From Fistulifera solaris (lineage: Eukaryota), in the NCBI GenBank assembly GCA_030295235.1, contig AP026139.1:744001-808000 (forward strand): a stretch of DNA of 64,000 nt. Direction: 5' to 3'. Each line of letters opens with the position of its first letter. Positions within the stretch are counted from its first letter, which is position 1. A program made the translations under genes and the position numbers. The notes below the pieces were generated by a model, which had not been told where the DNA came from, searched no databases, and worked only from the letters and a program-made list of their open reading frames with translations. This document shows, piece by piece, positions 2,305 to 17,869 of the stretch.

Positions 2305-3489
2305 TCTTACTTCTTTTACAAAGAATGCCATCCGACCGACGCGGTCAATATCAAGACGTCTCGTCTTCGGACCTCGCGAAGAGCCGCAACGCACCGTGTC
2401 CCTCGACGAATAACTCACGACAATCTACAACAAAATGTATGTTCTTTGAGCGTTTTTCTCAATGGCTCTCTTCCTTGACGCGCCTCGTACGATATCTCCT
2501 TGGGCTGCTTTCTTATCAACAATGATTTTCTCGCTTTTGAATTATCTTACTAAACACTCGGAAAACATTGTTTCCGTATTCATTCATCCTTCAGATGAAT
2601 TTACTCTGCAGAATCAAACTAATTTATGGAAAACGCCAACCGGAATAGGCGGGCTCGATTTGATTATAAAGAGTGCACTCGATCAATGATGGTCACCTTA
2701 TTTGGAAAAATACGTCACTCGCTGGAGTGCTGGATACGATTCAATCGTCCCTCTATCGCTACAAATCGACCGCGTAGAAATAGATCCGACTTGCAAACCG
2801 TCATTGGGCAAACTCAAAGTATGCAACGGCAATTATGGAGACTCGGGATGGCGGGGTATCAACATTGCGTTGATCGATGATACCGACCAGTACATTCGGC
2901 ACAGTGTCATCCAGTACAATGATTATTACAGGAGCAAAGGATTGGGAACCCCTTGGAAGGCGATCAAATACGGGGACTTTTTGGGGACAGCTCAACGACG
3001 AAAGTGCGTTGAAATATACGATGTGTCACGAACTGGGTCACGGTTTTGGTCTACCGCACACGGATGAGTACCGGTAAGTGCGATTACGTTCTTTTACTCA
3101 TCGCATGAAGCTGAGGCATCTCATATTGTGCTATATTGGCAATTGTCTTGGATTGATAACAGAAACATGTGGAATCACAATACCGGTGAATGTATGGACT
3201 TTACGATTTTCCCTCGACGCAATCTGTTTCCAGGGGAACGCAATTTCGATCGATTGTATCAACTTTACGGTTAAGTTCCTTTAAAAGGCAAACGAATCTT
3301 CGTCACTGCGTTCCTCATCGTAGATCTCTTTCCCAAGAAGCGATTGCGGAATATGAAAAGACCATTCAAGTTGCGCCGAAGGATCCCTCTTGCATAGAAT
3401 GTCGTGTAGATTTAGCAAATGGCTTTCATGTGATGATCCATAAGTTACCATCGTTAGTTGGAATAGATCCTGTCAAACGTCAACGTTGA
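2305..3489 (+). CDS. Metzincin-type zinc metallopeptidase (split over several frames; boundaries approximate)
   Basis: HELGHGFGLPH (HExxHxxGxxH) near 3027-3060; upstream KLKVCNGNYGDSGWRGIN segment; GTAAG donor near 3073. Confidence 0.65.
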
Positions 3490-3912
3490 GAGAAAGGCGA
3501 TGATGGAGTTTGCGTGAAAGATATAGCTTGTATCAGTATTGCAATGAATTAAGGGCGCAAAATAGACATTTACGTTCGAAATTAAAGGTAAAACGTATTC
3601 TCTCTTTCCCTGCTTGAGCAAAGTTTGAAAGCCGATGTAACAACTCTAAGCTGCTTAATTGGAATTGAAACGCATTGCTAATAAGGAACCTGCAATTTAT
3701 CCTACAGTCACTGTGGAGTCGCCCCGACTGAATCCTGTCATGAGTCGCCAGTAGTTGTGCTGCGTGTGTCGCTCGGATCTTCATTACTCGGTATTACGTA
3801 GTACTACATTTATTTTCGGTTTTGACTTTTTTTGCACTCCTTGTTATTACGCTTATACAAAGTATAAACCGGAGCATCTCCGCCGATCCTTCTACATTGT
3901 TGTCTTTTCTCA

Positions 3913-4323
3913 ATGGATCCCAATCAATTACAAGCAGTCAGTGCGAGTGAATTGCCTGATGGCTTTACTTTGGCCGATCCAGGTCCTTCTCAACAACCGC
4001 ATTCGCAACAGCAGCAACTTGAACAACAAAAGCAGCAACAGAAACAAGCGATACTCGAACAAGCATTGACGTCTGACGCACTTGCACGCTTACGAAGAAT
4101 CAAATTGGTCAAGAATGTTGACTCTCTGGAAAATGGAATCGTTTCTATGGCCATGTCGGGGAAATTGCCCGGTCCTATCACCGAAGGCAAGTTGATTGAA
4201 ATGCTGGAACGCATCAATCCCCAAAATCGTGAAAGCAACAAGGCAGCGAACACAATTCAAATTCAGCGCAAAAAGTACGCATTTGATTCCGACGATGAAG
4301 ACGACAATGATGATGATTTATAA
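3913..4323 (+). CDS. PDCD5: Programmed cell death protein 5 / dsDNA-binding protein
   Basis: ILEQALTSDALARLRRIKLVK, GKLPGPITEGKLIEML, IQIQRKK...DSDDED. Confidence 0.9.
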   Translation: MDPNQLQAVSASELPDGFTLADPGPSQQPHSQQQQLEQQKQQQKQAILEQALTSDALARLRRIKLVKNVDSLENGIVSMAMSGKLPGPITEGKLIEMLERINPQNRESNKAANTIQIQRKKYAFDSDDEDDNDDDL

Positions 4324-4405
4324 TCTAGAGAGTATGAATGGTATTGACAATGATACCGGTTTCTTTGTGGTCTTTGTATTATATCTCTTCATTTGATGAA
4401 ATTGA

Positions 4406-5050
4406 TTATGATTGTTTTGGTTGTAAAGCAATTGTTCCTACCACTACATTGTCGTACAAATCTACTGTCGCCGCACCCAGTGGATCCGCTCGCACAGTTT
4501 CCATTCGTCGCCAACACAGGTCCTTACCTTCCAAAATCACTTTTCCTTCCTCCCGACGATGATTTATTTGTGCGTAGAGTTGCATTGCCGGAACGAAATC
4601 GGTGCCGTTGTTGTTGGGAAGTGGAATATCATCCGTTTGTAATGTCAATAACAAGAATGGATACAATGGTTCTTTGAAGAGTCCCCAAACCCATAATCCA
4701 TCTTTACGATCATTCGGATCTTCCGATAAAATCCACCTGGATTTTACAATGGGAATCGTTGTCGTTGTAGTGCTGTTTTTGTGTTTGAAAGCATTTTTAA
4801 AGTTCCTTGTGGGGGCTCGTATCCTTGGTCTTCGACAAATTGTGTTTCGATGGTATACAACAATGGGTCTAATTTAGAACCTTGTGCCGAAATCAAACCC
4901 CGCATCACCAGGCGAACATTCCAGGTCGTCGCTTCCGTCAATGTGGGCGCAGTAGCAGCGAGCCAACGCGTCGTGTGTGCCGATCGAGGAGGTGCGACGA
5001 CAAAGGCACTGATTGTGGTCGACAAAGTGACTAGCAGTAGACTTGAGCAT
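4406..5050 (-). CDS. Hypothetical plastid-targeted protein (frameshifted)
   Basis: LLLVTLSTTISAF leader; ORF pieces 4744-5025 and 4406-4666 join through WILSEDPNDRKDGLWVWGLFKEPLYPF. Confidence 0.55.
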
Positions 5051-5256
5051 ATCAGTATCGAAAAAAAGGTACCCGACGAAGAGAATGTGTCATTTTTTGT
5101 TCGTTTTGTAGATTCTGGTTGTTGCGACAGCTGCGTTTTCGTCGTTTTCCCATTGTTGGTTGTTGATTCACAGGTGGCTCATCGTCATCGTCATTGTCGT
5201 TCGTGGCTCTGCATTTGGATTCTCGATGACGTCAATGTAAATATCGTACTGTCACC

Positions 5257-5760
5257 ATTAAGGTTAAAGTCTAAACTGAGAACTTGGTGAAAGAAATTCC
5301 GTATAAGGTTATAGGTCCAAAAGAAAAAAGATGAGACTCCGTACAGTACTCCGTAAAATAAATAGATAAAATATTTAAGGTTAACGTTGAAGTCAAAAAG
5401 CAGAACCAGGTAAAAGTAATTCCGTATAAGGTTATAGCTCAAACGAAAAAATAGATGATACTCTGAGTACAATAGATGAAGCCGTCAAGGTTAAGGTTAA
5501 GATGTAGAATAAGAACCTGGTAAAAGTATATCCGTATAAGGTTATAGTTCAAACGAAAAAATAGATGATACTCTGAGTACAATAGATGAAGCCGTCAAGG
5601 TTAAGGTTAAGATCTAGAATAAGAACCAGGTAAAAGTAATTCCGAATAATAATAAATGAAACATTTAAGGTCGTTATATGATCAAAAAGGAGAACGTGTC
5701 AAAAAATAATCCCGTATAAGGCTGTAGTTATAGTTCAAAGCGAAAAAATACGGAGTAAGG
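5257..5760. repeat. AT-rich tandem repeat, ~110 bp unit, about 4-5 copies
   Basis: 5411-5520 and 5521-5630 near-identical; recurring TTAAGGTTAA and CCGTATAAGG. Confidence 0.9.
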
Positions 5761-6100
5761 TAGAGGATTAGATTACTTTCAAGGCCGCGCGTAATGTCCG
5801 CGCGGGCGGAGAACCGTCTTCATTTCCATTGATTGCGAAGAAACGGAAATAAGGAATCAATTGCATTGAATAACTCTTATATATTATTCGCAAGGTCTAT
5901 ACTGATATTTTATTATATAAACATTGTCAATAACACAACACAACACAACAACAATTTTGCATCGACGAAACAGCGCTCTAGAAAAGGTGAAAGCTGCTTA
6001 ACTGCCATCACGAACTCTGATGCTATATAACGAAAAGTCACTCGCTTCAACATTCTGTCATCAACAGGATCAAAGGCGTTATCACACTGCACCAACAATC

Positions 6101-7873
6101 ATGACCCTTTCATATTGCCTTCGAATTGCATTCTTTCTGGTTCTCGGGAGCTCTCCCATCGATTCCTTTTCTGTTTCTACTTTAGAAACGAAATTGAATT
6201 GGTGGAAGAGTCGCTTTTCGCACATGTCTCTCGAGGACATTTCCAAGGATCTAGTGCAACATGGATATCAATGGAAGAAAAAACAGCAACAACAACCAGA
6301 GAATGAATCACAAGAGATATTCACGACGACAACATCGCTCGTCAAAGTACCCGGCTGCACTGCGAACGTTCATATACAACTCGTTCTGACCTCCGATTCA
6401 TCTACGACAAGAAACTCCCGAACCATACAATCATTACAAGGAACGGCAGATGCATTAGTGAGTCAAGGATTAGTTGCAGTCATTGCATCGTGTGTCGAGC
6501 AACAATCGGAAGACACCATTGGTCAAATATCAGCCGAAAGTATTACCGCGCGATTGGGATTGCAACAGCATCTCAGTCCAGGACGGAACGACGGAGTCGC
6601 CAGTTTGTGGCGAATATTGCATCAGTCACTGCAATCATCGTTTCCAGCGAGTTCTACGACTAGTGCAAAGACTATCAAGTACTCACAACAACCATCCGTG
6701 GCTCTGTTATTGTCGGGCGGTGTTGACTCGTCCGTCGCATTGCGTTTGTTGTTGCAACAAAACTATCGCGTCACGGCGTTTTATCTGAAAATTTGGTTAC
6801 AAGACGAAAATGCTCACCTGGGAGGAACTTGTCCGTGGGAAGAGGATTGGAAGATTTGTCAACAAGTGTGTGAGCAGGCGGATGTGCCATTGCGGGCGAT
6901 TAGTTTGCAACAGGAATATCACGAACGCGTCGTGGAGTATGCGATGGAGCAGGCTTCGTTGGGGCGGACGCCCAATCCGGATATATTGTGCAATTCGCGG
7001 ATCAAGTTTGGTTGCTTCTATGACGTACTAATGTCGCAACAGTCGGAACAGTTTGATTATATTGCTACGGGTCACTATGCACGGGTCGAACGTGATGACA
7101 ACGGTGTCTCAGTTTGTTTGTTTCGCGCACCCGATGCCATCAAAGATCAATCATACTTTTTGTGCACATTGACACAAGAGCAATTACAAAAGACGTTGTT
7201 TCCATTAGGGCATCTTGAAAAGACGCAAGTTCGACAGTTGGCTGACGAATTTGAATTGCCGAATCGCCATCGTCCGGATTCACAAGGACTTTGTTTCTTG
7301 GGGCAGGTGAAATTCGATCAATTTCTGAAAAGTTATTTGGGCACTCAGCCAGGCTCTGTAGTTGATGCGGTGACGGGGGATGTCATCGGGCAACATCAAG
7401 GTGTCTGGTTTCATACGATTGGACAGCGCAAGGGCATCGGCAAAGCTTTAAATCCGCAGGCAACGGCACGCGGTCCTTGGTATGTCGTATCGAAAGACCC
7501 GGTGAAGCGAATTGTTTATTGCACAAACCAATATGAGTTATTTGACGCACAGCGAAAACGCGTGGAGCTTGAGGATGTTACATGGATGTCAGGACAAGTG
7601 CCAGCGATGGTATCAGACGGGAACGCTTGTCGATTGACCATGAAATTACGGCACGGCCCTCGACTGGCGCGGGGACTGTTACAATTGAACGATGCAGAAC
7701 CTTCAAAGGGTACGGTAGAGCTAGAACAAATGGACAGCGGATTGGCGCCGGGGCAATATGTTGTCTTTTACGCTGATGATGGTGAATGTTTGGGGAGTGG
7801 CATCATGAGTGAATCGCAATGGAATCGTCCCATATGCCTAGAGACTCAGGCAGTAGAACAACTGACTAGCTGA
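6101..7873 (+). CDS. mnmA: SufE-domain / tRNA 2-thiouridylase MnmA fusion, probably plastid-targeted
   Basis: SufE motifs VPGCTANV, ADALVSQGL, LGLQQHLSPGRNDG; MnmA motifs SGGVDS, TPNPDILCN, ATGHY, KDQSYFL, DSQGLCF, TIGQRKG, APGQ; signal peptide + DSF; single uninterrupted ORF. Confidence 0.92.
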   Translation: MTLSYCLRIAFFLVLGSSPIDSFSVSTLETKLNWWKSRFSHMSLEDISKDLVQHGYQWKKKQQQQPENESQEIFTTTTSLVKVPGCTANVHIQLVLTSDSSTTRNSRTIQSLQGTADALVSQGLVAVIASCVEQQSEDTIGQISAESITARLGLQQHLSPGRNDGVASLWRILHQSLQSSFPASSTTSAKTIKYSQQPSVALLLSGGVDSSVALRLLLQQNYRVTAFYLKIWLQDENAHLGGTCPWEEDWKICQQVCEQADVPLRAISLQQEYHERVVEYAMEQASLGRTPNPDILCNSRIKFGCFYDVLMSQQSEQFDYIATGHYARVERDDNGVSVCLFRAPDAIKDQSYFLCTLTQEQLQKTLFPLGHLEKTQVRQLADEFELPNRHRPDSQGLCFLGQVKFDQFLKSYLGTQPGSVVDAVTGDVIGQHQGVWFHTIGQRKGIGKALNPQATARGPWYVVSKDPVKRIVYCTNQYELFDAQRKRVELEDVTWMSGQVPAMVSDGNACRLTMKLRHGPRLARGLLQLNDAEPSKGTVELEQMDSGLAPGQYVVFYADDGECLGSGIMSESQWNRPICLETQAVEQLTS

Positions 7874-8238
7874 AACATCATCACTCGATAACGATGAAAT
7901 CAGAAAAGCGAAATGGCGTACTCCTTTGAGGCGTGGGGACTCGGACGGTTCGATTTGTTTACTGCGAAGTACCGAGGAGCAACAACAAAGGTGAAACTTT
8001 AGGAAGTGATCACGATCGTGATGGCGAAGCTCGGAATTAATTCGAATTGCTGTCACTGCCACACGCTTTAGCTAAGCAAAATTTTGACGCATTGATTTTA
8101 AGATACGAATAGCGAGTAGGCTCCGAATTTTAGAGTGAGAGCGTGCTGAACCATGGTTTATCTAGAACTCTATATCTCAAAAAGACCTCGACAGGCGCCT
8201 TGTCGCTCCTCAAAGCACATTCGGGTAGAATGGTGTTG

Positions 8239-9546
8239 CTAAACCCTTCTTCTTCGTTCCCACTTCTTATCCCGGATTAGCACTGCCTTTAAGTCATTGG
8301 CAGAGACTTCATCGAGTCCAGTAAGCTGCACGAGTTCATACAGCACATCCATATGATCTGACAGAAAAAAGGCATTTCGCTGGAAATTGTACCAAGCATA
8401 ATTCGTCAAAAGGCCTTTACTAACGGTAGGCGTTCCGTTGTTGGCTGTACCACAAGATCTGCCGAGCCACAATAGAAGCGATTCAAGTGAATGAGATGTG
8501 AAACTTGACCACTGCCAATACCTCTATGATCGCGCCCATTTTCATCAATTACCCTGATTATTCGGTTGTTGGATAGCAGTTGTCGAAGATAGGAATTGTC
8601 CGGACCAAAAGCTTTGCTGGAAACATTGACTTTCAAGGTATGAAGACTTTTGTGACCTTCAACACCTTTGAAAAGCGTTCCTAATTGCTTTTGTGTGATA
8701 TCTTTCTTTATTTATCAAGTCATGAACTTGCAATTTCTTGTTGGCAAGGACGACACGACGAATAACGTTCGCCACCCACACACTCCGGTACCGGTACCGG
8801 TTCACGTGTGCCTTCATCATCGCTACCAAACCGGAATTGTATTTGTAGTTCCGTTAGATGGCTAAAATCAGCCATGCGCCGAAAAAAGGAAACAAGACAA
8901 TCCGGAATAAGGGATTCATTGTCGTGGTATACAATCAAGCAGAGTTTGTCGGGAACAAGTTAAAAAAACGTTTCAAGTTGTCGTCGCTCAACTCTGTACT
9001 CTCCTCAAACATCAATACATCGCAAGGCAATTTTTGTTTGAAAGCCGCATCCACAAAAGCAGCGCCTTCATCCTCAAACCGACACGCCGAAAATCGAAAG
9101 CTCATTGAGAAGGGTGTTTTCGCCAGAACAATGAACTGCTCGACACTCAGAGTCAAACCTTCGAAAATGATCCTGCGTGTGGGGTCCATTGCGAAGGTCC
9201 GCTCCAAGCACCGTGTACAATCAGTTCGAAAGTCAAAGGACTAGCCGCGCGTACCGATGACTAAATAAGATCGCTGTGAAAAATCTCCTGCCCGTTTCTC
9301 CAGGCTCATAAAATAGACAGCCGTTTGCATTTCGACACGATCTGATTTACCCACAATATAAAGCTTTAGACCTTCGCAACCGAATTCCAAAGACAAATAT
9401 CTCTCTTCCTTGCGCGGGGATTCGTTACTATTCCCTGGTGGTATATAAGTAAGTGTGCCGTTGTCGCGCCATATTGCAATTTGATGATAATACTTGTTCT
9501 TATTCAATTCTTCCAGACTGGTAAGTAGGCGACTCATTTCGTACAT
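8239..9546 (-). pseudogene. Fragmented RNI/LRR-like hypothetical gene
   Basis: Five collinear minus-strand ORF pieces; LRQLLSNNRIIRV...LIHLNRFYCGS tail typical of such proteins. Confidence 0.45.
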
Positions 9547-9694
9547 TCCGGCGAGCTATTTGCTCGGGCGTGCGCAGATGCGAAGAAATCAGTCCTAAAA
9601 GTAATGAAAAGCCTGTATCTTTCTTTTTATTCGGCATGTTGTTACAATATATTGGGAAAAGGAAGACAACAATCTGGTGACGTGAAAATGCAGC

Positions 9695-10230
9695 AACTGG
9701 TCCAGATTTTCTGGACCAGTTTATTTTACGGAGTACGGAGTAATAAATAGCACACGCCCAGATTTCCTGGGAACTTGAAAAAATATAGAAATAATATCAC
9801 ACTTCCAGATTTCCTGGAACTGTAAAAATTCAACTGGTCCAGATTTTCTGGACCAGCATATTTTGTAAATAGCACACGGCCAGATTTCCTGGTAACTTGA
9901 AAATATAGAAATAATATCACACTTCCAGATTTCCTGGAACTGTAAAAATTCAACTGGTCCAGATTTTCTGGACCAGAGTAAATATCAATCACGCAGAATA
10001 AATAACAGACCCCAGAATTCCTGGAAAGTGAAAATACAACTGGTCCAGATTTTCTGGACCAGTTTATTTTAACATCAACACACGCCCAGATATCCTTGGA
10101 ACCTGAAAATACAACTGGTCCAGATTTTCTGGACCAGTAGTTTATTTTATGACTGGTCCAGATTTTCTGGACCAGTTTATTTTACGTTAGGGTTATAGCA
10201 CGCGCATAGATTTCCTGGGAACTTGAAAAT
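9695..10230. repeat. Array of palindromic repeats
   Basis: CTGGTCCAGATTTTCTGGACCAG at 9697, 9834, 9954, 10040, 10115 and 10153, plus ~7 CCAGATTTCCTGG-like variants; 120 bp duplication (9781/9901). Confidence 0.92.
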
Positions 10231-10708
10231 ACAGAAAAATAATTACTCGTAATGGACATATACTAAGTTTCCGTCACTATGAAGCGGTTCTGTCACTCGA
10301 GACAAGCTGGTGATGATTTTCGTCGCAAGGGGACAGAAAACGTTTACGTGAAAATTTAACAGCAGGACTGCGGCACAAAAAATCCTTTTTCATGTTAAAA
10401 CGCTACCAGGTACCAGTAACATAGGTTTTTAAATAAAAATAGATGAAGCAAGAGGAAATTTAGAATCTGGCGATCTTTCGACTCAAATGGTCTAGCTCGA
10501 ATCTCCGGGTGCTTTGTTTCAAAATCGCGTCACTCGTCAGGCCGTCCGTTCGTGTCGAGCACAACGATGAAGAAAAAACGAGAGATTTTGCTTTTTTCTT
10601 CAACTTGAGTGGTTCTTTGTTGTTGCTCCTGGTATTATAGTTGTTGCGCTTGTTGCTATATTCTAAATTCTAGAAAAACTACGAACTTTCATTAGAAATA
10701 GACCGACA

Positions 10709-12250
10709 ATGAGGATGACAACGACGACAAGAACGACGAGGAGGGACCTTTGTCTGTGCTTTCTCTCAGTCGCCTCATTTTGTATCAAATTTCGATTTAC
10801 GGCAGCTTTTCTTCCAAGTCATTCCTTATTTGCTGTGACAAGCACTCTCTCAAAACGCGCTTTCTCTACTCAAGTCTACAGTTACCGCAGGAATGAAGAC
10901 GATGACGACGAGGATGACGAAGATGATATGATCGATGTCGAATCGTTGGGCAACTGGAGAGACTTTCGAAGATCACTCGGTCAATCCTTTTCTTCTTCGT
11001 CTTCCTTCCCAGAAAAACGACCAGCGACATCCGTTAGCACCGAAAATGAAGCTTTATTGGCGACACAAAATGAAGAACTGGCACTCGAATATCGCAATGG
11101 AGTTTGGGCACACGAAACTTCCTTGGTAAGATTCATTTGATTCGTTTGTGCTTTCGTTGTTACGTGCGCCTACTTGACACTTTACAAGCGGTGTCTAATG
11201 CTCAATTTTAATATTTGCAGCCGGAACTGGGTGGACTGATGGTGCGCATGCCGCTGGAGGTTGAATTGTACCGCAATCACAAACACTGCATACTCGGCAA
11301 ACAATTCCGCAACAGCTTGGCCGCCAACCAACCGAACACCGAGGAGGAGGATGACGACAACCGACGAACTTGGCGCAAAGCACATGGTCTCATACAATCA
11401 CAAATGCTACAATTGGTCGACAAAGTCAAACCGAGTGGTGAATTGAATGCAGCCAAGTTGTCGACAAAACAATCCGAGTTGTTGCAAATGTATTTGGACC
11501 ATCAAGAGACCTGGCAAGAAGTGTGCCTTATTTATCAAAAGAGGAGGCTTCATCGGAAGCTACGAGTTGTATGGTGGTATTGAATCGACCCATGGCCATG
11601 AAATTGACCGAAAATTTGGCGCAGCTCATCTTGTTTGGGAATCCGCCGGTCGAGGATGACCAGGATGAGCATTTGAACGAACAAGAAGCATCCCAACTGG
11701 TGCGATTTCTACTCGCATTCGGTAGCGAGTGCGGTGTTTACATTGGTGGACCCGATCAACAGGATCAACCAGCACTGTTGTTGCATGGCTTTGCCGAACT
11801 GCCGGGTGCGACGGAGATTGCCAACGGTCTCTATCAAGGAGGATTGGAAGCCGCCATGGATGGCGTATTGCGCGGCAAGTACCGGGCCTTGGATTTTCGT
11901 TTCTTTGTCGGGCGTCATGAATGCGAACCGCCCTTTTCAATGGAACTGTTGGTGGAATTGGGGAAATATCAGCCCATAGCAGCGGCCCGATCGTTGGCGT
12001 TGAAGCAATGTTTGTCTTTGCCCAAGCCGTTGTGGCATGAAGTGCTGGAACTGTGCGGAGAGAAATGGAAAGAAATGTCGAATTGGGAACGAACAAAAAG
12101 GACACGATTCACTTTCAGATCCTAGACGATGATGACGAAGATGTCGAAGATTGGGGAGGCGAAATAGTTGATGAGTTGAGTGAATTAGAGCTGGATGAAG
12201 ACGACGTTGACGATGAATTTGGATGGCTTTGAAAAGTTCGAGATTTAGAT
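10709..12250 (+). CDS. DUF179 / AlgH (UPF0301)-like protein, probably plastid-targeted; intron ~11126-11220; frameshifts; 3' end approximate
   Basis: WRDFRRSL, WAHET, VVLNRP, VYIGGP, FRFFVG motifs; TAAFLP leader. Confidence 0.7.
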
Positions 12251-15543: not shown

Positions 15544-15919
15544 AAGGGAGCCCAGACAAAACCTTCTCCCTACAGTAGCTTTTAAAACTACCTGGTATGG
15601 ATGCCAATCTATTTGCGGCTTTGTTTTGCAATGAAGTCGTCATAGCACTCAGCGAAGCGCGTAGATCGGACTCATAATCAATACCCCTCATGAATGAAAT
15701 AAAACTCGAAACGTAAATTGGACAAAGATACAAGATCTAAAAAATGTTTTCTACGTCATTTTCACGTTGGCTCCGTAGGGAAAATTATTGACAATCTGTC
15801 CGTCTTCCGCCGGACCCCATGCAACAAAACAGACACGCAAAGAAACGCGCATCTTAATTCATTCCGTCTTTTATTATGCATATGGACTATAGTCATTGCA
15901 ATATCAATCACCTTTCAAC

Positions 15920-17869
15920 ATGACAAACGAAAAGACACCTGCCATTCTTACCGGACTAGTCGAAAGCCTAGGACCCGAATGCCTCGATCGCATTCAAAAT
16001 TGTCGTTTACTTGTCGTCGGAGCCGGAGGCATTGGTTGTGAATTACTCAAGAATTTGAGTCTCTCTGGATTCCGTCACTTCGAAGTCGTCGATTTAGACA
16101 CAATTGATGTCTCGAATCTTAATCGACAGTTACTTTTTCGCGCGAAACACGTCGGTCAGCCGAAATGTGTTGTAGGAGTCGCTGTGGCGAAAGATCTTTC
16201 GCCCTACGCGGATACACAAATAATGACAGCGCGTCACGGCAATGTCTGTGATAATTCCGTCTTTAATGTACAATACATGGAACAATTTGATCTTGTGCTG
16301 AATGCTCTCGATAATGTCACGGCCCGTCGCCGTGTCAACCGCTTGTGTTTGGCGGCCAACGTTCCCATGATGGAAGCCGGTACTACGGGCTATTTGGGAC
16401 AAGTGCAGACGATTTACAAAGGTGTCGCCTGCTACGAGTGCAAAACGCAAGAACCGCCGAAAGTCTATCCCATCTGTACAATTCGTTCGACGCCCAGTCA
16501 ACCCGTTCATACGATTGTTTGGGCCAAGGAATTGTACAGGCTACTCTGAGTCCCGATCCTTCTCAGAGTATGCTTTGGGAAGACTTTCAGAATGAAGAAT
16601 CGAGTACGTATATGCAAGCGGCGCTCGAGTTGCGCGACATGAATCAGGATCCCGACGCCGGTGAGCACACGAAAAAGACGGCGATAGATCGATTATGGAA
16701 GGCCTTGTATGCCGATGAAATACAAAAACAATTAAATATGGATCGTTACAAGACAGCCGAGAAGACTCCCATTGTGTTAGAAATGCCTACCGCTGCGATG
16801 AATACACAGCCCGAGTGGAAACCCATGTCCATTTGGTCCCTGTCGGAATGTTTCTACGAATTTAGCAATGCATTGATGTCGGTATTGGAGATGCCCGAAT
16901 CTTTTGACAAGGACGACGAACTGGCGATGCGTTTCGTGACAGCAGCGGCGCAAATGCGTAGTATGAACTTTCATATTCCCTTGCAAAGTTATCATGATAC
17001 CAAAGGCATTGCCGGCAACATCATCCCCGCGATTGCTACCACGAACGCTATTGTGGCCGGGTTGCAAATCCTGCAAGTCTTTTCTTTGTTGCAGGCGCAA
17101 CTCGCCAACAAGGACATTAGCAGTAAATTACCACCGGTGGGAACGGGAAAGTATATTAACTGTTTGAGAAATGCGACACGCAATGGGTTGTACTTGGCCG
17201 CGTCGCCTTTGGAAACACCGAATCCGCAATGTTTTGTGTGTCGCGAGCAGGTTACGGTCGTCCTCACACTATCCACAAAAACACTGCAAAGTCATTTCGT
17301 TTGCACGCTTTGTGCAAACGATCATTCAACAAGAGTTAGGCTTCGCTGAACCGACGGTTTATTTGAACCAAGATGTTTTGATTTGGGAAGAAGGCAAGGA
17401 TTCAGATGAAACGCTACGAAGTGTGAATGGTGTCAAGTTGTTGCAAGACTTGCCTCGTGGCGGCTTACAGCACGGATCCGTGTTGACAGTTGAAGACTTT
17501 AGTCAAGATTTGCAAGTCGATGTTCGCGTTGTGATCGTGTCAGATGAGGACTTTAAACGTCAACACGGTAAAGAAGATGATGCGGAAGAGGATGACGACG
17601 CATATGCTTTGCGTTATCACATTGGTGGCGATAAGCCGGTCGTAGGGAGGAGTGCTGGTGACGACGATGAAGCGAAAGAAAATTCGGCTGCTATCGTTGA
17701 GGATGCCGACGAAGATGGCGTTGTCGAGATTGTAGAGGACACCAGCAATGGTAAGAAGCGGGTCATGAACGGAGAAACGAGGCACGAATCGCCACTGAAG
17801 AAACAGAAGACGTCCAAAGGCGCTAATATCGAAGAAGGTGAAGAAGTGATCGAAATTGATGATCGATGA
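15920..17869 (+). CDS. UBA2: SUMO-activating enzyme E1 subunit 2 (two apparent frameshifts)
   Basis: GAGGIGCELLK, SNLNRQ, CxxC pairs, catalytic YPICTIRSTP, AGNIIPAIATTNA. Confidence 0.92.

Follow-up and report, generated by a model that had tools for sequence, protein, structure and literature searches.

A SufE-type domain fused to the tRNA thiouridylase MnmA in Fistulifera solaris: a candidate built-in sulfur carrier for plastid tRNA thiolation

The gene described here lies near the start of a 64,000-nucleotide stretch of DNA from the diatom Fistulifera solaris (the window; contig AP026139.1 of assembly GCA_030295235.1, positions 744,001 to 808,000 of the forward strand), to whose first letter all positions below refer. 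It encodes one polypeptide in which a SufE-type sulfur-acceptor domain, preceded by a putative plastid leader, is joined by a flexible linker to a complete MnmA, the synthase of 2-thiouridine at position 34 of tRNA (s2U34). That the fusion is real and that its two parts belong to the SufE and MnmA families is nearly certain. The two domains occur together in almost all of the best listed matches, and the Cys that would carry the persulfide is invariant among the aligned orthologues. The SufE-type domain is a candidate carrier that may pass sulfur from the plastid SUF desulfurase directly to MnmA.

Architecture of the fusion protein

The coding sequence (Table 1) coincides exactly with the intact open reading frame (ORF) claimed by the first-pass annotation, which had been made from the sequence alone. 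Four public sequencing runs from one study (X1 to X4), whose run type is not on record, were examined on positions 3000-11000, and their contigs on the region contain no joint inside 6101-7873. Across the SufE/MnmA junction, record 10 of X2 (6566-6781) and record 17 of X3 (6646-6792) are colinear with the window. The contigs of X1 cover the whole 8 kb, those of X2-X4 only 5863-8081, with an additional 10759-10900 in X4. The pattern of X2-X4 would fit a transcript; the runs were found via this gene, and the uncovered flanks are not used as evidence. Some contigs of X1-X3 differ from the window at third codon positions (6718-6829, e.g. 6793-6829; 7450-7462) while keeping the frame, which points to another allele or to a closely related strain; the sites are likely synonymous.

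The in-frame ATG at 6020 is probably not the real start. The closest orthologue, P0003 (78% identity), begins with the hydrophobic leader and lacks the extension that this start would add, and the base at -3 is A for ATG 6101 but C for ATG 6020; the start at 6101 was retained for these reasons. A recorded database model of the protein, P0002 (549 residues), starts at M42 (nucleotide 6224) and omits the hydrophobic leader. The choice among 6020, 6101, and 6224 matters for targeting prediction.

Diatom plastid presequences are bipartite, consisting of a signal peptide and an ASAFAP-type cleavage motif. In the leader MTLSYCLRIAFFLVLGSSPIDS, followed by F, which the first pass had read as a signal peptide plus DSF, a crude heuristic shows a hydrophobic core with a 10-residue Kyte-Doolittle mean of 2.55 and then the junction of S22 and F23. 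Very little sequence separates F23 from the first SufE helix. By a similarly crude check, 70 of the 106 orthologues of the diatom set that start with M have a hydrophobic N terminus, 55 of them with [ASGCT]F next. The protein is probably targeted to the plastid, a location that we infer from the leader as judged by crude hydropathy.

The SufE-type domain scores 49.5 bits (E 4.5e-13) with Pfam PF02657 over residues 78-173 (profile positions 33-118), well above the curated cut-off of 27 bits. Foldseek relates its predicted fold to SufE structures of the PDB, namely 1mzg_A (E 9.6e-6, TM-score TMt 0.61), 3g0m (TMt 0.66), and chain C of 8vbs, as well as to CsdE 5eep (TMt 0.69). Profile and fold thus bear out the SufE-like domain with a persulfide Cys in VPGC that had been read from the sequence. 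This Cys, C86, stands in an invariant Cys column shared with standalone SufEs; a profile of the alignment of fused and standalone SufEs reaches 136 bits with E. coli SufE (1mzg), whereby the Cys column falls on residue 51. For the SufS-SufE complex published in 2024, each of the four SufE regions in contact with SufS is assigned a critical residue, namely W20, C51, D74, and R119, and R119 of E. coli SufE is described as required for turnover with SufS (PMC11408855). Three of the four have an equivalent in the fused domain. The score with the NCBIfam SufE equivalog, 33.1 bits, lies below the cut-off of 160, and the fused domain is therefore no canonical SufE equivalog; the assignment to SufE is sound though the domain is divergent. 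Since C86, D117, and R162 are invariant in the orthologues, the sequences argue for a domain that remains functional with a partner of the SufS type rather than a decayed one. A decayed SufE remnant was considered and rejected because of the same invariant Cys, Asp, and Arg.

The linker, rightly called Ser/Thr-rich in the first pass, is the only internal part of the predicted fold with low confidence, having a predicted local distance difference test (pLDDT) score of about 53 for residues 181-190. This AlphaFold2 model, which was built on 102 orthologues, has a mean pLDDT of 88.9 and a predicted TM-score (pTM) of 0.83, the latter being only suggestive on domain packing.

The MnmA part matches tRNA_Me_trans at residues 200-401 (231.9 bits), tRNA_Me_trans_M at 407-473, and tRNA_Me_trans_C at 488-568 in Pfam, and exceeds the cut-offs of the NCBIfam MnmA models TIGR00420 (353.8 bits; cut-off 236.95) and NF001138 (349.6 bits; cut-off 284). 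The Pfam scan gave no Tus-like domain in the fusion protein. Foldseek relates its three-domain fold to the MnmA structures 2hma (TMt 0.88), 2deu_A (TMt 0.90), and 2det of the PDB, the range being TMt 0.88-0.90 at 36-38% identity. A full MnmA with PP-loop, DxxC motif, and second Cys, as originally claimed, is thus present. D-type MnmAs are defined by the signature C-DxxC-C and C-type MnmAs by CC-CxxC-C (Shigi et al. 2020, PMC7025502). With C244, D294, C297, and C398 all in place, the MnmA of the window is of the D-type.

Table 1. Coordinates of the fusion gene and of its features in the window.
Feature	Positions	Strand	Remarks
SufE-MnmA fusion coding sequence	6101..7873	+	590 residues plus TGA (7871-7873); single stop-free frame from ATG 6101; no intron needed
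Alternative in-frame ATG	6020..6022	+	617-residue product; 27 polar residues added before the hydrophobic leader
Putative signal peptide, residues 1-22	6101..6166	+	followed by F23 at 6167-6169; resembles a diatom-type plastid leader
SufE-type sulfur-acceptor domain, residues about 28-179	6182..6637	+	Pfam, fold layout (pLDDT 78-97), Foldseek
C86 codon, presumed persulfide Cys in VPGC (V-x-G-C loop)	6356..6358	+	corresponds to E. coli SufE C51
D117 codon	6449..6451	+	corresponds to E. coli SufE D74, a SufS-contact residue (phmmer alignment to 1mzg/8vbs)
R162 codon	6584..6586	+	corresponds to E. coli SufE R119 (phmmer alignment to 1mzg/8vbs)
Ser/Thr-rich flexible linker, residues 180-198	6638..6694	+	sequence (HQSLQSSFPASSTTSAKTIKYSQQPSV for residues 174-199); low pLDDT
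MnmA, tRNA 2-thiouridine(34) synthase, residues 199-569	6695..7807	+	PP-loop catalytic, PRC-barrel, and C-terminal beta-barrel domains
PP-loop SGGVDS, residues 205-210	6713..6730	+	ATP binding, U34 C2 adenylation; motif match
C244, initial Cys in the C-DxxC-C signature of the D-type	6830..6832	+	invariant column
D294-I-L-C297 (DxxC)	6980..6991	+	by motif position, E. coli MnmA D99 and C102
C398 in GLCF, second catalytic Cys	7292..7294	+	by motif position, E. coli MnmA C199

Conservation, spread, and origin of the fusion

SufE and all three MnmA Pfam domains are found, with SufE again on the N-terminal side, in 119 of the 120 best listed full-length matches to the diatom protein, the sole exception, P0115, being a fragment cut at its N terminus. 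The named proteins among these 120 come from Seminavis, Cyclotella, Cylindrotheca, Thalassiosira, and Nitzschia, which we take to be diatoms throughout. The MMETSP transcriptome-derived orthologues P0021, P0038, P0100, and P0254 likewise carry both domains in one product. The window protein is an ordinary orthologue of the fusion and not peculiar to the F. solaris genome. A chance merger of two adjacent genes was rejected on the grounds of the single frame and the conserved fusion. P0004 (92% identity, 471 residues) may be an allelic or strain variant of the window gene.

The fusion extends beyond the diatoms. The SufE part alone, run with HMMER against the whole library, returned 104 proteins at E <= 1e-3, 48 of which also match the MnmA part, among them P0188 from the red alga Porphyridium purpureum. 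When P0188 itself was used for a search, both domains were present, again in this order, in 80 of the 120 matches listed, including proteins from the red algae Rhodosorus, Purpureofilum, Gracilaria, Agarophyton, Gracilariopsis, Cyanidium, and Galdieria, the brown algae Ectocarpus and Discosporangium, and the chromerid Vitrella (P0295). Of the other 40, most are proteins of about 355 residues that lack SufE, and the few named ones belong to Dependentiae/TM6 bacteria. No named green-lineage protein occurs among the 240 matches listed for the diatom and Porphyridium queries, neither of which was a specific search of green plants, glaucophytes, haptophytes, or cryptophytes. The only indirect hint on the green lineage is that Arabidopsis MnmA belongs to the five references relative to which the 421-residue N-terminal extension of Plasmodium falciparum MnmA is described (PMC10219651). 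From this survey, the fusion would seem to be the usual form of plastid MnmA throughout the red lineage.

In an alignment of 102 orthologues that spans diatoms, red algae, and further groups, the residues C86, D117, G123, R162, C244, D294, C297, and C398 as well as the PP-loop are invariant (102 of 102). A regular expression for the Cys motif finds it upstream of the PP-loop in all 236 proteins with at least 130 residues there. In a MAFFT alignment, 235 of the 236 have a Cys in the C86 column; the motif of the remaining protein, P0292 from Ectocarpus, lies just beyond the 260-residue window that was cut out for the alignment. The first-pass annotation had named the joint SufE and tRNA_Me_trans architecture and the conservation of the Cys in orthologues as points on which its reading could be checked, together with a match to the SufE profile, and all of them turned out in its favor. 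On its further point, that the SufE domain be part of the transcript, the support comes from the transcriptome-derived relatives.

A quick maximum-likelihood tree of the SufE domain was made from 51 sequences picked by hand from 341 proteins, that is, 26 fused domains, nine from eukaryotic SufE-BolA or SufE-cysteinyl-tRNA synthetase (CysRS) proteins, and 16 short standalone SufEs. All 26 fused domains fall into one group with an SH-like approximate likelihood ratio test (SH-aLRT) value of 92, which is below the threshold for a starred branch. This group adjoins that of the eukaryotic SufE-BolA/CysRS domains (93), and a starred branch of 100 splits both from the 16 short standalone SufEs. The branches are long, and the tree is therefore taken only as a hint at a single origin of the fused domain from a eukaryotic, plastid-type SufE.

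The MnmA part has its closest prokaryotic relatives in metagenome-assembled genomes of Babeliales/TM6 (Dependentiae), with 48-52% identity at loci L001-L014, as found in a pattern-seeded and biased genome scan. Likewise, the best bacterial matches listed for the Porphyridium orthologue are unfused Dependentiae/TM6 proteins of about 355 residues with 55-58% identity. A SufE match was found in none of the five Babeliales/TM6 genomes examined. Cyanobacteria are described as having a C-type MnmA, a type that was not found in mitochondria or chloroplasts (PMC7025502). These matches may reflect a non-cyanobacterial origin of the plastid MnmA or gene transfer between protists and Babeliales parasites.

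Sulfur transfer to MnmA

The persulfide of SufS is shielded, and an acceptor, SufE or SufU, is needed. Because cyanobacteria have the C-type and none of this type is found in chloroplasts, the plastid D-type MnmA would need persulfide delivery. A fusion with SufE appears sensible as an adaptor herein, since a D-type MnmA needs a delivery system in bacteria (Tus or YrvO) while the plastid offers only the SUF desulfurase. In the relay that we consider the most likely mechanism, the plastid type-II desulfurase SufS would form a protected persulfide, and the fused SufE-type domain would dock on SufS via D117 and R162 and take the sulfur onto C86. The tethered domain would then hand the sulfur to the C398/C297 pair, either in-chain or across the dimer, and the PP-loop would adenylate C2 of U34, with s2U34 being made on plastid tRNA-Lys, tRNA-Glu, and tRNA-Gln. 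Architecture, residues, fold, and conservation are observed here; SufS as the donor and each of the transfer steps are what we infer from them. That C86 serves to relay persulfide sulfur to MnmA seems to us somewhat more probable than an even chance. The earlier interpretation, a direct coupling of the SUF desulfurase to s2U34 formation through the fused SufE, is supported as far as sequence reaches.

Genetic data from the malaria parasite fit this relay in part. Plasmodium lines deleted for sufS or mnmA lose the apicoplast, whereas those deleted for sufE or the scaffold genes keep it (PMC10219651). A dispensable free SufE fits with an MnmA that has its own SufE. Several other points weigh against the relay. 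B. subtilis MnmA, which has no SufE domain, replaced Plasmodium MnmA in one of four attempts, so the SufE domain may not be strictly required; the authors favor direct SufS-to-MnmA transfer as the closest analogy (PMC10219651), and a later preprint from the same group gives the pathway as SufS directly to MnmA (PMC11702754). A different chemistry would follow from a 2026 review, according to which D-type MnmA of E. coli can bind a [4Fe-4S] cluster via two Cys and one Asp (PMC13066941). Within the fused domain itself, the N-terminal W-x-(D/E)-x-Y motif, which corresponds to the SufS-contacting W20/E21 region of E. coli SufE, has no counterpart in the alignment with standalone SufEs, and the Pfam alignment starts only at profile position 33, leaving positions 1-32 unaligned. 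Docking on SufS may thus differ, although helices are predicted at residues 28-40 and 44-64 despite the missing motif. The fused domain is also divergent as a whole, as its Pfam score compares with 104-121 bits in standalone and SufE-BolA/CysRS forms.

Some of these points would suit a SufE-type domain that acts as an adaptor or activator, tethering and stimulating SufS beside MnmA, while the sulfur may go straight from SufS to a Cys of MnmA as in YrvO-MnmA and C86 is helpful but dispensable. Free SufE does stimulate SufS, IscS or SufS could pass sulfur directly to Thermus thermophilus MnmA in vitro (PMC7025502), and the complementation of the Plasmodium mnmA deletion by B. subtilis MnmA alone agrees with the direct transfer that its authors model. 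The low success of that complementation speaks against such a role just as the experiment itself speaks for it, and the invariance of C86 together with D117 and R162 is hard to explain for a dispensable Cys. We regard this explanation as unlikely.

Iron-sulfur chemistry, the alternative raised in the first pass, offers another role for the domain. Herein, D294, C297, and C398 of MnmA would hold a labile [4Fe-4S] cluster, and the fused SufE would supply sulfur to build or recharge the cluster or to form a sulfide on its fourth iron. The three would-be ligands are invariant, the usual client of SufE is an Fe-S scaffold, and for E. coli D-type MnmA, which can coordinate Fe-S via two Cys and one Asp, cluster-dependent thiolation is claimed in work cited by the review mentioned above (PMC13066941). 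However, D-type MnmAs are elsewhere classed as non-Fe-S enzymes (PMC7025502), and the Plasmodium apicoplast survives loss of the SufBCD scaffold genes but not of MnmA (PMC10219651), which argues that Plasmodium MnmA is independent of a SUF-built cluster. The sequence does not separate Fe-S from persulfide chemistry; on the whole, a cluster-based role seems to us decidedly improbable. Hardly credible, finally, is that the gene model or the assembly is an artefact, or that the protein resides in the mitochondrion or endoplasmic reticulum. The leaderless database model P0002 would fit with this. Against it stand the single uninterrupted frame, the fusion in nearly all of the best listed matches including transcriptome-derived ones, the run contigs that are colinear over the domain junction, and the same leader at the start of P0003; moreover, tagged Plasmodium MnmA, which has a SufE-like extension, is described as located in the apicoplast (PMC11702754).

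The persulfide relay can be joined with the origin of the fusion into one tentative scenario, which we consider possible but would not bet on. The fusion would have arisen once in the red-algal ancestor from a duplicated plastid SufE and a D-type MnmA of non-cyanobacterial type. It would since then have been the obligatory adaptor by which the closed type-II plastid SufS supplies tRNA thiolation across red and brown algae, diatoms, chromerids, and apicomplexans. C86 would be essential for plastid translation, and the dispensability of free SufE in the Plasmodium apicoplast would be accounted for.

Surroundings of the gene and comparison with known systems

The gene has no adjacent sulfur-metabolism gene among the 13 ORFs scanned at positions 1-28465; its neighbors are unrelated, which is what one expects of a eukaryotic chromosome, and several long neighboring ORFs have no Pfam match. 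Downstream, positions 9694-10184 hold an array in which a near-perfect hairpin, AACTGGTCCAGA-TTT-TCTGGACCAGTT, is repeated about eight times and interleaved with a second, related unit. The summed contig depth of X1 rises to about 1000 at 9942-10208, compared with about 20 around it, and one of the X1 contigs jumps over 454 bases (9725 to 10180); the hairpin array is therefore taken as a high-copy, length-variable repeat. An AlgH-like (DUF179) ORF follows at 11523-12125 (+, 40.7 bits). At 15896-17869 (+), ThiF, UBA_E1_SCCH, and UAE_UbL domains are spread over three overlapping ORFs in different frames, which looks like a gene for SUMO-activating enzyme subunit 2 that is broken by short introns or frame changes.

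The domain pair as such is already in print for Toxoplasma, and the relay hypothesis for Plasmodium. The Toxoplasma apicoplast thiouridylase TGGT1_309110 is described as having one SufE domain and tRNA_Me_trans domains (Yang et al. 2022, PMC9420914). For Plasmodium MnmA, a SufE-like structural domain in the 421-residue N-terminal extension is reported that could pass sulfur from SufS to MnmA (Swift et al. 2023, PMC10219651); the same article compares the equivalent N-terminal regions in Babesia, Theileria, Toxoplasma, and Eimeria. In the excerpted literature on SufE, MnmA, and plastid or apicoplast tRNA thiolation, eLife figure supplements aside, no description was found of the fusion in diatoms or red algae or as the red-lineage standard, and only these two apicomplexan papers describe it. 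Like the apicomplexan MnmAs (TGGT1_309110; PF3D7_1019800), the diatom protein is a nucleus-encoded single chain with an N-terminal SufE or SufE-like part and a C-terminal MnmA. The apicomplexan proteins are compared here by description only; a link toward them is the chromerid protein from Vitrella among the matches listed for the red-algal fusion. The Plasmodium protein resides in the apicoplast, a red-derived plastid. Both apicomplexan proteins are much longer and contain large insertions; the Toxoplasma chain exceeds 1500 residues and has SufE at residues 519-589, and the SufE-like domain of Plasmodium is recognized only structurally. In contrast, the diatom protein is compact with its 590 residues, and its SufE lies above the Pfam cut-off.

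Among bacteria, YrvO-MnmA of B. subtilis shares with the fusion a short path from a SufS-like desulfurase to a D-type MnmA that does without a Tus relay (PMC10219651, PMC13066941). There, the desulfurase is dedicated and transfers directly, with no carrier of the SufE type; here, a carrier is built in, and the general SufS of the plastid presumably acts as the desulfurase. With the IscS-TusA-TusBCD-TusE-MnmA system of E. coli, the fusion has in common the D-type MnmA (D99, C102, and C199 being D294, C297, and C398) and the logic of persulfide hand-over to a Cys of MnmA, but E. coli employs a type-I desulfurase and five separate Tus proteins, and one fused SufE takes the place of the latter. 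E. coli SufS-SufE (8vbs) and CsdA-CsdE resemble it in the fold, the loop of the persulfide Cys, and the retained equivalents of D74 and R119. Free SufE hands its sulfur to the SufBCD Fe-S scaffold, whereas the domain fused to MnmA is tied covalently to a tRNA-modifying enzyme and is without the W20-region motif.

Other eukaryotic fusions of SufE comprise SufE-BolA (plant SufE1 type) and SufE-quinolinate synthase (plant SufE3). They share with SufE-MnmA the principle that SufE is joined to the client or regulator that it serves, and the SufE-BolA proteins P0167, P0196, and P0203 form the nearest group in the tree; they differ in their partner and in a less diverged SufE (112-117 bits versus 49.5 bits). 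An additional fusion was observed in the dinoflagellate Polarella glacialis, where P0186 (547 residues) has SufE N-terminal to a complete class-I CysRS. The same arrangement is present in P0178 and P0225 (724 and 778 residues; one an MMETSP transcript), the scores over the three proteins being 113-116 bits for SufE and 375-402 bits for tRNA-synt_1e, and the SufE part of this fusion groups with the SufE-BolA type in the quick tree. We know of no earlier description of this second fusion of SufE to an enzyme of translation, though no literature search was aimed at it.

The supply of sulfur to MnmA differs among model bacteria, with a five-protein Tus relay in E. coli versus a desulfurase of its own in Bacillus. 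The plastid route is so far a hypothesis that comes from the apicoplast of the malaria parasite, which depends on both MnmA and SufS. The present finding is an incremental advance and not a new kind of system. For a single-chain persulfide relay, the diatom protein is a better test object than the insertion-rich apicomplexan forms, as it is compact and folds well, its SufE is recognizable by sequence, and the group includes transformable species.

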